IMG/VR virus record: IMGVR_UViG_3300009376_000004
DNA: 20,000 nucleotides
Direction: 5' to 3' (one strand)
Source: an uncultured virus (IMG/VR IMGVR_UViG_3300009376_000004)
Taxonomy: Duplodnaviria; Heunggongvirae; Uroviricota; Caudoviricetes
Shown here in pieces: positions 7,535 to 15,853 of this stretch; position 1 is the first letter of the stretch, and every line of letters begins with the position of its first letter. The notes under the pieces are model-generated. The model did not search any database. It saw nothing but the letters and a program-made list of their open reading frames with translations, and was not told the origin of the DNA. The position numbers and the translations under genes were made by a program.

Positions 7535-7771
7535 TCATTTATACATATTAGTATCGTCAGGTTTTTGTTTTGTATCTGACCAATATGTTAAGTAAGCCTT
7601 TAATTTTTCCTCATCAAATTTATTTTTTAATAACATCATTACAATTTCTATTTCTGTAAAGCTTGGTTTCTCTTTATTCAAAGCATCAATAAATGCAGAA
7701 TCAACTGCTGTGTAAATATCATCTATTTTTTTTGAATATGGTAATTCTTCGTCAGGTTTATCTTCACTCAT
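7535..7771 (-). CDS. Hypothetical acidic protein
   Basis: MSEDKP start coupled (TAATG) to the matrixin stop; convergent with the + strand run. Confidence 0.7.
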   Translation of the reverse strand: MSEDKPDEELPYSKKIDDIYTAVDSAFIDALNKEKPSFTEIEIVMMLLKNKFDEEKLKAYLTYWSDTKQKPDDTNMYK

Positions 7772-8580
7772 TAGCATATCCTACTATTACCACAGTCGAT
7801 CTCTAAGCATTGAATATCACATTGTCTAGGAATATACTTCGGAGTAGGGAATCCGAATCCATCATCTCCATAAATTCTAATCATCATTTTAAGATCGAGG
7901 TCGGTTACTTCTTTAACTTCTCCCTCAAATACATCAATGGATCCATACATGATTGGTGAGTAATCACATTCTACTTCTCTACAATCAGAAGCAACATAAT
8001 AATGCTCTAAACCAAATCCATGTCCTAACTCATGCAGGACGATATTACGAAGATCATTTTCAGGAATTTCTTTCCATTCTGTTTTCACACCTATTTCAGC
8101 TTCATTGATATTTTCTCCTAAACTGATTGATACTTTACGTTCTACTGTATTCATATCAACTTCAACCCAATAATAATATCTTACACTAGATGAAAAATCA
8201 AATCCTGTTCTACCAACAGATTCATCCTCAACACCATAAGGATAGTTAATGAATATTGTGCAATCTGGATAATCTGAAACATCGGCAATTCCATGTTGTG
8301 ACCAATCATATTCAGTAGTGGTCATATTCCAATTACCACCTGTTGCATTGACCAATTTAGTTTGCCATTCATTTATTGCTGAATGAGTAACCTTAGAGAG
8401 AATATCTATCCGAGGTTCTACTTCTGGATCAGGGTACATTATACAAATTGATGGATTGGTCTTATGATAAACACCTATTGTTCTGAAATAATCTCCATAG
8501 GCATTACTGATAAACCCAGCAAATGCTATTCCTACTATTAACCAAACAATAATCCAAAGTATCACTACTTTCATAGACAA
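7771..8580 (-). CDS. Secreted or membrane-anchored matrixin-like (M10/metzincin) zinc metalloprotease
   Basis: Hydrophobic N-terminal signal; HELGHGFGLEH zinc motif; SPIMY Met-turn. Confidence 0.85.
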   Translation of the reverse strand: MSMKVVILWIIVWLIVGIAFAGFISNAYGDYFRTIGVYHKTNPSICIMYPDPEVEPRIDILSKVTHSAINEWQTKLVNATGGNWNMTTTEYDWSQHGIADVSDYPDCTIFINYPYGVEDESVGRTGFDFSSSVRYYYWVEVDMNTVERKVSISLGENINEAEIGVKTEWKEIPENDLRNIVLHELGHGFGLEHYYVASDCREVECDYSPIMYGSIDVFEGEVKEVTDLDLKMMIRIYGDDGFGFPTPKYIPRQCDIQCLEIDCGNSRIC

Positions 8581-8656: not shown

Positions 8657-8773
8657 ATGACGGATATTAAGATTGTAGAGGGTGGAGTTTGTGACACTTG
8701 CGGAAAAGCATTTACCAATGATGAAAAAGGAGCTATGGTCTGTGAATGTCCTGAAGAAGTAGATGTAGCATGA
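8657..8773 (+). CDS. 38-aa Cys microprotein (not in ORF track)
   Basis: MTDIKIVEGGVCDTCGKAFTNDEKGAMVCECPEEVDVA; ATGA overlap with the next gene. Confidence 0.65.
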   Translation: MTDIKIVEGGVCDTCGKAFTNDEKGAMVCECPEEVDVA

Positions 8774-8967
8774 ACTACGAAAAGATGGGAATTTGTGTAA
8801 CAATAGCAGTAGTGGCTTGTTTATGTGGATTTGCAGGAATAGCTTCAAGTGGTATTGATATAGGCACAGATGAAGTAAGACTACCAAATTTCACATCATC
8901 AACTAGCACAGCACATGGTAATGGATATTACGAATGGTGTTATCAATTTGAACGAGATTGTAAATGA
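8770..8967 (+). CDS. Small membrane-anchored protein
   Basis: N-terminal hydrophobic helix; C-terminal YYEWC..C. Confidence 0.7.
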   Translation: MNYEKMGICVTIAVVACLCGFAGIASSGIDIGTDEVRLPNFTSSTSTAHGNGYYEWCYQFERDCK

Positions 8968-9692: not shown

Positions 9693-10130
9693 GTGAAAGA
9701 TATGCCGATAAGACAATTTGATGACTTGGATAGAGAATTGATAGATTGTCTAGTTAGGATATTAGCTACGTTGCTTGGTATTAAGGAATCTATAACAGTA
9801 GCCGATAAGAAACAAATGCTATCACTCTACTATATACATTTACCTAAAAGTGAATTGCGAAAAGAGAGTGCTGACTTGGATTACATATACGGATCAGCAT
9901 ATCCAGAGGATAGGGTAATCTATCTGAATCCGAGATTATTGAAAAGAAGTTATCAAGCACTAATAGAAACAATTATCCATGAATTGCTTCATGTCAAATA
10001 TCCAAAGGCAAAAGAAGCAAAAATACAACGGTTAGAACACCAGATGACGGGAAGATATGATTATACAATTACGTCAAAAAAGAAAGGACAGCAAGGAGGA
10101 CACTTCCGAGTTTGTAAGGTGATAAAGTAA
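9693..10130 (+). CDS. Zincin-like metallopeptidase (SprT/YgjP-like HExxH)
   Basis: YGSAY..IYLNPRLL..TIIHELLH. Confidence 0.75.
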   Translation: MKDMPIRQFDDLDRELIDCLVRILATLLGIKESITVADKKQMLSLYYIHLPKSELRKESADLDYIYGSAYPEDRVIYLNPRLLKRSYQALIETIIHELLHVKYPKAKEAKIQRLEHQMTGRYDYTITSKKKGQQGGHFRVCKVIK

Positions 10131-13847: not shown

Positions 13848-14132
13848 ATGCTTGAAATGTTAGCTGAAAACTCACTCGTAGTGATAGTTACATTAGTAAT
13901 TACAAGTGCCTTCGGTGGTTTAACTGCTTATTTTAGGCAAAGAACGAGCTGTCTAAGAAAGATAGCAGATGAAGTGAGTGATCTTCAAAAGAGGTCTTAT
14001 AGAATTGAAAAGGCTATAATCATTCTAGCCAAACTACAAGAAGATGTAGTTCAAAGAAGTCATCCAGAATTAAAGACCGAATGGGAAGAAATAGTCAAAG
14101 AATTGTTAAGTGGTAATGGAAATGGTAGATAG
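13848..14132 (+). CDS. Single-TM plus coiled-coil membrane protein (possible lysis accessory)
   Basis: N-terminal TM followed by a heptad-like helix. Confidence 0.7.
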   Translation: MLEMLAENSLVVIVTLVITSAFGGLTAYFRQRTSCLRKIADEVSDLQKRSYRIEKAIIILAKLQEDVVQRSHPELKTEWEEIVKELLSGNGNGR

Positions 14133-14211
14133 TTATTGTGTAAAATGTGGTCATTATGGGGAATGCTCATATATACGAGAAGTGGATTGCGAATGTGATT
14201 GCCATGAATAA
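14122..14211 (+). CDS. 29-aa CxxCGH..DCxCxCH microprotein (not in ORF track)
   Basis: MVDSYCVKCGHYGECSYIREVDCECDCHE. Confidence 0.7.
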   Translation: MVDSYCVKCGHYGECSYIREVDCECDCHE

Positions 14212-14314
14212 TACCGAATTGAGATATAACAGATATTGCAAGGAATTAGAAGAATTGAATAAGAAAGTAAGACGAAAACTAAAACAGATTAATGAGGTGG
14301 AAAAAAAGTTATGA
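14204..14314 (+). CDS. 36-aa coiled-coil microprotein (not in ORF track)
   Basis: MNNTELRYNRYCKELEELNKKVRRKLKQINEVEKKL; overlaps both neighbours. Confidence 0.6.
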   Translation: MNNTELRYNRYCKELEELNKKVRRKLKQINEVEKKL

Positions 14315-14415
14315 GTAGAGGTTGCTGTTTAATATGTGGTCACTGTTCAGATGAAGTCATTGCAGAGATGATGGATTGTAAGTGCAAATGTCATGGTGGA
14401 ATATACTTGAATTGA
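14311..14415 (+). CDS. 34-aa CxxCGH..DCxCxCH microprotein (not in ORF track)
   Basis: MSRGCCLICGHCSDEVIAEMMDCKCKCHGGIYLN; GAGGTGG SD. Confidence 0.75.
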   Translation: MSRGCCLICGHCSDEVIAEMMDCKCKCHGGIYLN

Positions 14416-14498
14416 CTAAAGGTGGTTATATGTGTTTTAGATGTGGTCATTATGAAGCAGAAGATACTGATGATTGTGCCTGTAAGTGTCATGGCTAA
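14412..14498 (+). CDS. 28-aa CxxCGH..DCxCxCH microprotein (not in ORF track)
   Basis: (M)TKGGYMCFRCGHYEAEDTDDCACKCHG; start is TTG 14412 or ATG 14430. Confidence 0.7.
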   Translation: MTKGGYMCFRCGHYEAEDTDDCACKCHG

Positions 14499-14551
14499 CT
14501 TAAATACTCTCTTAAATCCTTAAATATATCACGATTCTATGACCTTTTGAT

Positions 14552-14806
14552 ATGGAAACATTAGTGCTAGTAGCAGTAGCATCAGTCATCGGAGCTGGAC
14601 TAAATACCCTAAGAGGATATTTACATAGTAAAGAACCATATAGTGCAAAGAAATTAGCAGGAGCAACAATTATCGCTTCTATGACAGCTTTAGCATTATC
14701 ATCAACAATAGTAGTTGATGGACTAACCGAAGCAGGAGTAATCTCTATTGGTTTGGTAACTGGTTTCGCCGCAGATTATGCTATTACTAAATCGAAAAAG
14801 GATTAG
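14552..14806 (+). CDS. Small 3-TM membrane protein, holin-like
   Basis: 84 aa, three hydrophobic helices, basic C-terminal tail TKSKKD; CTTAAATA 33 nt upstream. Confidence 0.65.
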   Translation: METLVLVAVASVIGAGLNTLRGYLHSKEPYSAKKLAGATIIASMTALALSSTIVVDGLTEAGVISIGLVTGFAADYAITKSKKD

Positions 14807-14841
14807 AATATACTTAAAATGCAGATATACTTGCATAAAGT

Positions 14842-15567
14842 ATGGTAAAGAGGAAACCAAATTGTGTTATAAGGGACACTTTCTTTAAGGAAACCTTACA
14901 TCACGATATTCCCTATTTTTCAGAAATGGAGATAGAAGAATGGAAACACAAATGGACACCGAAGAAAGTAAGGCGTAAAAAATTTGGTTATGTTACTTAC
15001 AAACTTATATCCGAATCTCGTAGTTTTCCTGATTCAAGTTTTGAACATAAGGCATTAACAATAGCATTAAGACAATGGGGTTTGAGAACAAAAGATATTA
15101 GATTCAAAAGAGTAAAGGGTAAAGCAGATCTAGTTGTAAAATTCGCAACAAGAGAGGAAGATAAATATTTTAAAGATAAACCATCAGTTCTAGCATATGC
15201 GTATTTCCCAAATGGTGGTGAGATAGGAGGAGATATGACATTCAATGATTCAATATGGTGGTCAAAAGATGGAGCATCAAGAAATGCACATGAGTTAATG
15301 CCAGAACAATATCCATCGAATACAAAGACGAGATTAAAGACATACAATCTAGTCCATGTAATGCTACATGAAGCTGGTCATGCGTTAGGATTGAAACATC
15401 ATCCTAGTTGTAAGAAATGTATTATGTACCCATATTATAGCGGAAAGGTTTTATTGCATGAGCATGATGTTCTACGAATACAAACATTCTATGGTAAAAG
15501 GTCTATTAGTAAGCAGGTTATTGATTATTTTAGACGAAGAATGATGAGAAAGTGGTCTAATGCCTAG
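14842..15567 (+). CDS. Matrixin (M10A/MMP-like) zinc metalloprotease without a signal peptide
   Basis: VLAYAYFP, GGDMTFND..W, NLVHVMLHEAGHALGLKH and CIMYPYY Met-turn. Confidence 0.9.
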   Translation: MVKRKPNCVIRDTFFKETLHHDIPYFSEMEIEEWKHKWTPKKVRRKKFGYVTYKLISESRSFPDSSFEHKALTIALRQWGLRTKDIRFKRVKGKADLVVKFATREEDKYFKDKPSVLAYAYFPNGGEIGGDMTFNDSIWWSKDGASRNAHELMPEQYPSNTKTRLKTYNLVHVMLHEAGHALGLKHHPSCKKCIMYPYYSGKVLLHEHDVLRIQTFYGKRSISKQVIDYFRRRMMRKWSNA

Positions 15568-15853
15568 TAGAAGAAAAGATAAATTTGGTGAATATCATGG
15601 AAAGCACAAATACATTAGTGCTAACTTTCAAAGAGATTGGACAGCAAAAGACGGAACAATAGAAGTTAAATCACAAGTAGAGATAGAACAAGGAAATAAG
15701 GTAGAAGTGGAAACACAGATAGATCTTAAAGAACTCATGGATGATAATATGAAAGAAAAACGTAGAGAGTTAATCAAAGAGAACCATCCAGATCGTGGTG
15801 GTACAGAAGAAAAACTAAAGAAAGTCTTAGATGAGTATGGCGAAAAGAGTTAG
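15560..15853 (+). CDS. Protein with a C-terminal partial J-domain (HPD)
   Basis: RRELIKENHPDRGGTEEKLKKVLDEY. Confidence 0.65.
   Translation: MPSRRKDKFGEYHGKHKYISANFQRDWTAKDGTIEVKSQVEIEQGNKVEVETQIDLKELMDDNMKEKRRELIKENHPDRGGTEEKLKKVLDEYGEKS

Follow-up and report, generated by a model that had tools for sequence, protein, structure and literature searches.

A candidate exit cassette of tailed archaeal viruses that pairs a probable holin with a signal-less matrixin

Introduction

In the holin-endolysin cassettes of phages, such as those built around LydA of P1 (PF16083) or the S-type proteins of lambda (PF05106 and PF04550), a small three-helix membrane protein with a charged C-terminus adjoins a signal-less hydrolase in the late gene region. 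The means by which tailed viruses exit through archaeal walls that consist of a surface layer (S-layer) only is a question that reviews call open, and the locus described here names candidates for both parts of such a system. It lies in a 20,000-nt stretch of DNA ("the window", meaning the whole of the stretch analysed) from the uncultured virus IMGVR_UViG_3300009376_000004 (Caudoviricetes), which forms part of an AT-rich virus genome (31-43% GC). Two genes on its + strand are at issue: TM84 (14552-14806), encoding an 84-amino-acid (aa) three-helix membrane protein with a basic C-terminus that is a probable holin of the superfamily III (LydA-like) fold, and, starting 35 bases past the TM84 stop, a gene for a 241-aa zinc protease of the matrixin (M10A) type (14842-15567), which resembles matrix metalloproteinases (MMPs), lacks a signal peptide and is a candidate endolysin analogue. 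The module they form is real, conserved and previously undescribed, and it is plausibly a variant of holin-based lysis with an MMP-type cargo.

The window differs from the phage cassettes in that its cargo is an MMP-type protease and not a peptidoglycan hydrolase, its host would lack murein, and no spanins are expected. Because the enzyme is an M10 matrixin and not muralytic, the locus would work like a holin-endolysin cassette without being a strict member of that class. Archaea of the class Nitrososphaeria have a protein S-layer and no peptidoglycan.

For archaeal viruses, a 2015 review, the available text of which gives no candidate genes and knows of no such enzyme, hypothesised that holins act together with S-layer proteases (PMC4456609). 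The accessible sections of another account call the holins of archaeal viruses elusive and uncharacterised, and describe the pseudomurein endoisopeptidases PeiW, PeiP and PeiR, peptidases of methanogen viruses that serve exit from the archaeal cell (PMC10791045). These are like the window protease in being virus-encoded peptidases, with a role in archaeal cell exit that for the window protease is a proposal, and unlike it in cutting pseudomurein, which is found in some methanogens only; their holins, moreover, are not identified. They also belong to another peptidase class. Predicted small membrane proteins beside a hydrolase occur in other tailed archaeal viruses as well. According to the accessible parts of the respective reports, Vyasavirus has predicted holins beside an amidase (PMC11706807), and ORF26/27 of HRTV-Dl1 encode a glycosyl hydrolase and a membrane protein, with no S-layer-degrading protease found (bioRxiv 2022.10.18.512658). 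Both differ from the present locus in their hosts, their enzymes and their lack of a protease, and the holin candidates predicted in other archaeal viruses have no protease partner in the text available (PMC11706807, PMC12596118, PMC11705971). Finally, in the PVAP pyramids of SIRV2 and STIV, as summarised in the available text of the 2015 review, a small viral membrane protein opens the S-layer-covered cell (PMC4456609); unlike the system proposed here, this involves a single protein and mechanical exclusion of the S-layer, with no enzyme.

The closest described enzymes are MMP-7 and MMP-3 (MEROPS M10A) and the bacterial karilysin and mirolysin, with which the window protease shares the catalytic fold, the three-His zinc motif and the Met-turn. 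It differs from the MMPs in having no signal peptide, PRCG motif, helical prodomain or hemopexin domain, and in possessing an extra, basic C-terminal helix. Mirolysin provides a precedent for latency through a short pro-segment with one Cys, as described in the accessible part of its report (PMC8259862). The closest viral folds in BFVD are the MMPs of insect DNA viruses (granulo-, asco-, irido- and entomopoxviruses), which differ in their eukaryotic hosts, their low identity (13-23%) and the lack of a holin partner.

A published description of this gene pair was not found in the literature within reach, which excluded subscription papers on marine thaumarchaeal viruses and bioRxiv supplements. 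The main text of a 2025 preprint on the virome of ammonia-oxidising archaea contains none of the words "holin", "peptidase", "metalloprote" or "S-layer"; similarly, the main text of PMC6563490 contains neither "holin" nor "lysis", and its four supplements contain none of "matrixin", "holin", "M10" or "metalloprote". The lysis route had been proposed as undescribed when the locus was first annotated from its sequence (hereafter the original prediction). As an idea it was anticipated by the 2015 review, to judge from the text available (PMC4456609); what is new is the candidate gene pair.

Small membrane genes as neighbours of the protease

The association of the protease with small membrane genes was surveyed in loci from IMG/VR, metagenomes and genomes, of which 125 family loci were kept (some contigs twice), leaving out a natural fusion (L197) and two cellular copies (L166 and L167). 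When these were grouped at 60% identity, giving 19 groups of which 18 had upstream DNA, a small membrane gene was the direct upstream neighbour of the protease in 11/18, and the count was similar at other groupings (7/11 at 50% and 23/32 at 70%). By comparison, a small membrane gene lay directly downstream in 1/19 groups, upstream of other genes in the same loci in 4.7% of cases, and upstream of unrelated matrixins in 7/81, the last control being drawn from a metagenome scan with 3 family loci of 79. Most of the exceptions to direct adjacency are due to one or two inserted genes, and within 1.3 kb upstream or 0.8 kb downstream a small membrane gene was found in 16/18 groups, against a background of 15%. 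Membrane segments were called by hydropathy only, and the groups are kin, so the counts are not independent trials; the adjacency of the protease to small membrane genes nevertheless exceeds chance.

Across the protease tree, the partner may be TM84, a two-helix protein of 53-62 aa, a protein of 70, 98, 101 or 105 aa, or TM94, a second small membrane protein also encoded in the window. At least one of these types, of 56 aa, has no detectable relation to TM84 (hhalign 0.5%), and the idea that it is a shortened TM84 is unsupported. Retention of the same kind of neighbour while its family is swapped is typical of holin-endolysin cassettes, and the partner swapping seen here between lineages may be understood as with interchangeable holins. 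A holin-like gene beside a signal-less hydrolase in the late region is what the window presents, though the arrangement is not obligatory. Functional coupling of the holin to the protease is reasonably likely. An additional curiosity is a 42.5-kb viral record (loci L184 and L186, G025) that carries two different matrixins with different partners and may be a chimeric contig.

The TM84-protease adjacency itself is not an assembly artefact, since a contig from another public sequencing run spans both genes with 47 differences in 1,342 bases.

The matrixin

The protease matches Pfam Peptidase_M10 (PF00413) with an E-value of 1.5e-25 (90 bits against a cut-off of 24), and its closest solved structures, by sequence as well as by fold, are MMP-7 and MMP-3. 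The human forms of both match it at about E 1e-15 by sequence, and a Foldseek comparison of its structural model (mean predicted local distance difference test score, pLDDT, 86.6) with MMP-7 gave E 1e-12. A database search returned 121 relatives of 35-97% identity. The hallmarks of matrixins and MMPs are present, namely the HExxHxxGxxH motif, the Met-turn and the MMP catalytic fold; the zinc-binding residues H176, E177, H180 and H186 (15367-15399) and the Met-turn residue M195 are invariant in 51 aligned sequences, so that the enzyme is intact. In the alignment, Glu, Tyr and Thr of the window protease stand opposite three His of MMP-7, two of which are kept in the L195/L062 clade. In MMPs these His bind structural zinc, and this second site is lacking in the window protease. 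No muralytic domain was found in the protease with Pfam or PHROGs. The Cys8 described below was also considered as a disulfide partner of a CxxC near the Met-turn, which is unlikely because 43 relatives have no other Cys.

Two features of the protease would suit an enzyme that is made in one compartment and acts in another. One of these is its N-terminus. As the original prediction held, the protein is a matrixin without a signal peptide: an N-terminal hydrophobic stretch in the first 45 residues occurs in 0/86 distinct family members, as judged by a hydropathy proxy and not by a signal-peptide predictor. Instead there is an acidic leader (median charge -3 in the family), poorly ordered in the model (pLDDT under 50 across most of residues 1-28, so that the leader is not placed), with Cys8 encoded at 14863-14865. 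In a survey of 188 partly redundant sequences, made up of 120 database proteins and 68 locus copies, 13 did not fit the search pattern and 6 had N-termini that were too short; among the 169 left, 164 have a Cys 13-42 residues ahead of the catalytic domain, and in 43 relatives it is the sole Cys of the protein. The original prediction had likened the window's KPNCV to the PRCG of MMPs, where PRCGxPD is the cysteine-switch motif of the prodomain. The Cys has stood up well to this comparison and the likeness has not: PRCGxPD is not conserved in the family, only the Cys and the following two, mostly aliphatic, residues are kept, and since the other neighbours vary, the resemblance to PRCG is superficial. 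A single Cys, conserved within a leader that is acidic and disordered, has the look of a cysteine switch, and by analogy with known switches Cys-based latency is probable. A complex prediction of the pro-segment (1-30) with the catalytic domain and zinc scored 0.02 and was used neither for nor against.

The other feature is charge. All family members end in a basic amphipathic helix (n = 171; median 22 aa, net charge +6, hydrophobic moment 0.73), which in the window spans residues 224-238 (15511-15555), is present in the model and is a candidate membrane- or S-layer-binding element. The mature protease has a median charge of +5.3 per 100 aa (n = 79), compared with -2.0 for unrelated matrixins (n = 100) and -1.3 for other proteins of the same viruses (n = 242). 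In N. maritimus, according to the accessible text of a structural report, the S-layer is strongly acidic, above all towards the membrane, and is glycosylated on its outer face, with SlaB or its last domain as the probable anchor (PMC11153153). An acidic inner S-layer fits a basic enzyme arriving from inside, which is circumstantial.

Longer fused forms of the protease (518-2000 aa) were absent at E 1e-20, which is weak evidence because the sole fusion seen (451 aa) falls below that size range. That fusion, L197:7097-8452 in genome G230, consists of four membrane segments, a repeated linker, a Cys leader and a matrixin domain, and adjoins a staphylococcal-nuclease-like gene. Neither the protease nor TM84 had a match among INPHARED phage records, and a single-sequence scan of viral contigs returned nothing, the relatives being found only with alignments.

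TM84 and TM94 as holin candidates

The AlphaFold2 model of TM84 (mean pLDDT 87.5) has helices at residues 3-24, 32-50 and 60-83, followed by the C-terminus KSKKD, in agreement with the three helices and basic tail first ascribed to the protein; basic tails are kept across the family, which numbers 245 close relatives in a database search. Three membrane helices and a charged tail constitute the architecture of holin superfamily III (LydA / lambda S type). In a Foldseek search against BFVD viral proteins, 20 of the 50 matches listed are named holin or LydA, one is a "membrane protein" and 29 are unnamed or uncharacterised, the best among them having a TM-score of 0.84 and a root-mean-square deviation of 1.8 Å over 81 columns. 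In the ESM Atlas, the nearest named clusters are Phage_holin_3 families (score 0.81, below the tool's mark of 0.9), which serves as a lead only. Lastly, a profile search yielded 114 remote homologs, of which 95 were scanned: two match the LydA-type family PF16083, at 20-21 bits and thus below the cut-off of 28.4, and one matches a PHROG holin.

Several results weigh against a firm assignment. TM84 itself passes no family cut-off in Pfam or PHROGs, including those of holins; its BFVD matches carry automatic names, have a best E-value of 0.1 and never reach E 0.001; and a fold search of the PDB finds generic helical bundles only, in many unrelated solved proteins (Z 5-7, up to 7.4). Since the weak lines draw on one annotation source, and since bundles of three helices abound, TM84 is best termed a "probable holin". 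Even so, fold, Atlas and remote-homolog lines, which are weak and partly dependent, agree on superfamily III, and TM84 is likely to act as a holin. The holin-like nature originally proposed therefore survives in this qualified form. A capsid protein of spindle-shaped viruses was also considered for TM84 and rejected, because TM84 has three helices and sits among HK97-type head genes.

Further upstream on the + strand lies TM94 (13848-14132; 94 aa), a single-pass protein with an N-terminal hydrophobic segment and a charged helical tail that is assigned to the cytoplasm. It corresponds to the transmembrane, coiled-coil gene originally noted near the pair, and is a candidate second holin, antiholin or accessory. 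Its PHROG holin match is weak (E 0.039), its homologs number 49 open reading frames (ORFs) in the loci surveyed, and it shares 30% identity over 82 aa with the first cassette gene of a provirus described below (G122). The other membrane proteins encoded upstream of the protease match nothing significantly in Pfam or PHROGs, and their scattered holin matches (E 0.007-0.4) are at noise level.

Two variants of TM84 may be mentioned. Stand-alone TM84-like genes of 103-110 aa occur in a non-viral context in four Nitrososphaeria-class genomes (L354, L355, L358 and L360) and are possibly domesticated holins. TM84-like proteins with a 90-aa C-terminal coiled extension were seen at L356:1486-2025 and in P0304, P0306, P0308 and P0328.

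Hosts and proviruses

The class Nitrososphaeria, from which the host was predicted to come, is indeed where integrated copies are found. Among 401 genomes of the class, the protease family is present in seven (E 1e-10) and a TM84-like gene in seven. The protease of G230 has a TM84-like gene directly before it, in a setting of head- and tail-like genes; that of G168 directly follows a TM94 homolog, and the two come after tail-like genes. The clearest provirus is that of G122, seated in a 776-kb chromosomal contig of a Nitrososphaeria-class genome in the order terminase, portal, head genes, TM94, TM84 with a coiled extension, matrixin, and neck and tail genes that include the tape measure; the matrixin is divergent and has an N-terminal Cys. 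This provirus was found by the TM84 profile alone, its protease having been missed by the protease search, so that a prediction of the pairing was borne out. The family copies in proviruses of the class make the host class well supported for the family, from which we infer that the host of the window virus itself belongs to Nitrososphaeria. A search of genomes with TM84 gave four matches, one in a metagenome-assembled genome labelled Ca. Nitrosopelagicus and three in bacterial bins, the latter probably being stray viral contigs.

Gene layout and neighbouring genes

The positions and + strand orientation of TM94, TM84 and the protease were all confirmed, and, as first noted, they lie just before tail genes: tail-fibre-like genes, which form the right end of the window, start 1.4 kb downstream of the protease. 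The layout upstream of TM84 is less compact than had been described, as three Cys-rich mini-ORFs (14122-14211, with the pattern CxxCGH...CxCxCH; 14311-14415; and 14430-14498; all +) and a short coiled-coil ORF (14147-14314, +; 55 aa as called, its real start probably being later) intervene between TM94 and TM84. The mini-ORFs, in tandem over 14122-14498 (+) and encoding 22-34 aa each, are possibly zinc-binding micro-proteins, and one to four copies occupy the same position in L008, L015 and L200. The last of these is the closest relative with long flanks, its protease being 73% identical and its terminase large subunit lying just upstream of the same genes; a 47-aa look-alike of the short coiled ORF is found upstream of its TM94.

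A TATA-like element (14812-14820, +) lies 30 bases before the protease start and could be its own promoter. The same word precedes TM94, TM84 and the next structural gene, and its five matches in the window (2.4 expected) are not significant by count, with 20/200 shuffles reaching five. A sigma-70 promoter scan is uninformative for archaea. RNA runs, which were covered at 6-8% of words and as contigs only, gave short pieces over TM84 in two runs and none over the protease, and say nothing on expression. The contig of one run, X10, has a loose 19-base end at window position 14290, which we take to be a template-switching adapter; nothing is concluded from it on transcription.

Immediately after the protease, and overlapping its stop, is a 97-aa ORF (15560-15853, +) that is kept in this position in L008, L015 and L200; the HPD motif in its C-terminal part is, to our eye, reminiscent of a J-domain fragment. 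Elsewhere in the window, a 5'-open ORF (3-2009, +; 668 aa) is composed of short modules with zinc-finger-like motifs and repeated "KANE"-like words, and has no family match. A 65-aa single-pass protein with two C-terminal Cys (8770-8967, +) was likened by eye to the family that lies directly upstream of the protease where TM84 is located elsewhere. On the opposite strand (7771-8580, -), a second zincin of about 267 aa carries an N-terminal hydrophobic signal; its homologs often adjoin the cassette in other lineages (L042, L050, L057-L063 and L301-L323), and it is possibly an exported counterpart or a receptor-shaving enzyme. SprT-like and 75-90-aa mini-zincin genes (HExxH) are frequent as well (window 9693-10130, +; L177, L180, L289, L302, L309 and L312), so that several metalloprotease types exist in these viruses.

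Proposed mechanism and rival explanations

The reading favoured here is one of exit from a protein-walled cell, in which a holin sets free a latent protease and this protease loosens the S-layer. In the late phase of infection, TM84 would build up in the membrane and open lesions, with TM94 either aiding or restraining it. The matrixin, which has no signal peptide and would be kept inactive in the cytoplasm by binding of its N-terminal Cys to the catalytic zinc, would pass through these lesions and be activated by loss or oxidation of the Cys leader, after which it could cleave, from within, the S-layer protein or the anchor that ties it to the membrane. The lattice would then fall apart and the tailed virions leave, with the protease acting as an enhancer that is not essential in every lineage. 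For the chain as a whole, the chances seem to us evenly balanced, and the choice of the S-layer or its anchor as the substrate could as readily prove wrong as right. The broader proposal, that in tailed viruses of ammonia-oxidising archaea an interchangeable holin and a Cys-latched, MMP-type protease digesting the S-layer or its anchor constitute the protein-wall counterpart of a phage endolysin system, is offered tentatively, its likelihood falling just short of even.

A number of observations weigh against this reading. In the 80 closest of 155 TM84 loci, the next gene is a prohead protease in 75 and the matrixin in only three. Of the 29 TM84 loci with enough flank, the matrixin is adjacent in three, about 5 kb off on the other strand in six (where it lies behind a different single-pass protein) and absent in 20. 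In the largest TM84-bearing virus group, which we presume to resemble Marthaviruses, TM84 is situated between the portal and prohead protease genes. Two virus records of 91% and 95% completeness possess TM84 and no member of the matrixin family, both carrying a signal-bearing zincin related to the one at 7771-8580. In one lineage, the protease follows a tail-fibre gene while a TM84-like gene ends the tail block many kilobases away, and a few host genomes have stand-alone TM84-like genes and matrixins in their non-viral parts. The protease, often with a 35-45-base gap and the TATA-like word before it, may be transcribed on its own, and it has no wall-binding domain. The 20/29 loci and the two near-complete genomes without the protease mean that the pair is not obligatory. 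It looks as if TM84 and a second small membrane protein, which is encoded directly upstream of TM84 in 69/74 loci, form the core, with the protease as an optional but strongly attached partner.

These facts lend themselves to another explanation, namely that TM84, with TM94, lyses the cell alone and the matrixin serves in the cytoplasm as a membrane-associated accessory, setting the time of lysis or assisting it from inside, with targets such as the holin, its inhibitor or host membrane-scaffold proteins. The frequency of TM84 without the protease and of the second membrane gene beside it would be expected under such an arrangement; moreover, the tail, being basic and amphipathic, could attach to the inner face of the membrane, and the one host copy fused behind four membrane segments would be tethered by them. 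We nonetheless hold an inside role to be unlikely, since a switch for latency and a mature domain of strongly basic character are in keeping with an enzyme released into another compartment, and swapped, unrelated partners fit a non-specific pore better than a specific substrate. It is still less likely that the matrixin is a virion protein, cutting the S-layer at entry or processing structural proteins, with the membrane genes as mere late-operon neighbours. Head and tail genes do surround the protease gene, which in L031, L032 and L034 overlaps the stop codon of a tail-fibre gene, and packaging needs no signal peptide; however, a small membrane gene lies upstream of it far oftener than of other late genes, these viruses encode a separate S78 prohead protease, and other lineages have the matrixin off the structural operon or on the opposite strand.

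A non-lytic role, in which the holin-like protein secretes the protease for receptor shaving or S-layer remodelling (as in superinfection exclusion or a service to the lysogen), would account for copies persisting in decayed proviruses and cellular contexts and for the second, signal-bearing zincin that often adjoins the cassette, but in viral contigs and in proviruses that look intact the genes are placed with late structural genes, and we consider this role improbable. That there is no functional link at all, with an accessory protease hitchhiking at an insertion hot spot beside small membrane genes, would agree with the patchy distribution and the protease's own TATA-like element. It is very improbable given that the linkage spans protease lineages of 30-50% identity and unrelated partners, and that it has a direction (upstream in 11/18 groups, downstream in 1/19).

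Implications for viral exit from protein-walled archaea

Returning to the proposed pair of holin and released protease, both parts are conserved and swappable across many virus lineages and host-integrated proviruses. If the proposed reading is true, the matrixin would be the first identified S-layer-degrading viral enzyme, as well as a minimal, signal-less MMP with its own latency switch. The S-layer of N. maritimus can be isolated, according to the accessible text of the report on it (PMC11153153), and each step of the proposed chain is thus testable with purified proteins. Moreover, as the hosts are major marine nitrifiers, the cassette bears on how viruses kill them.

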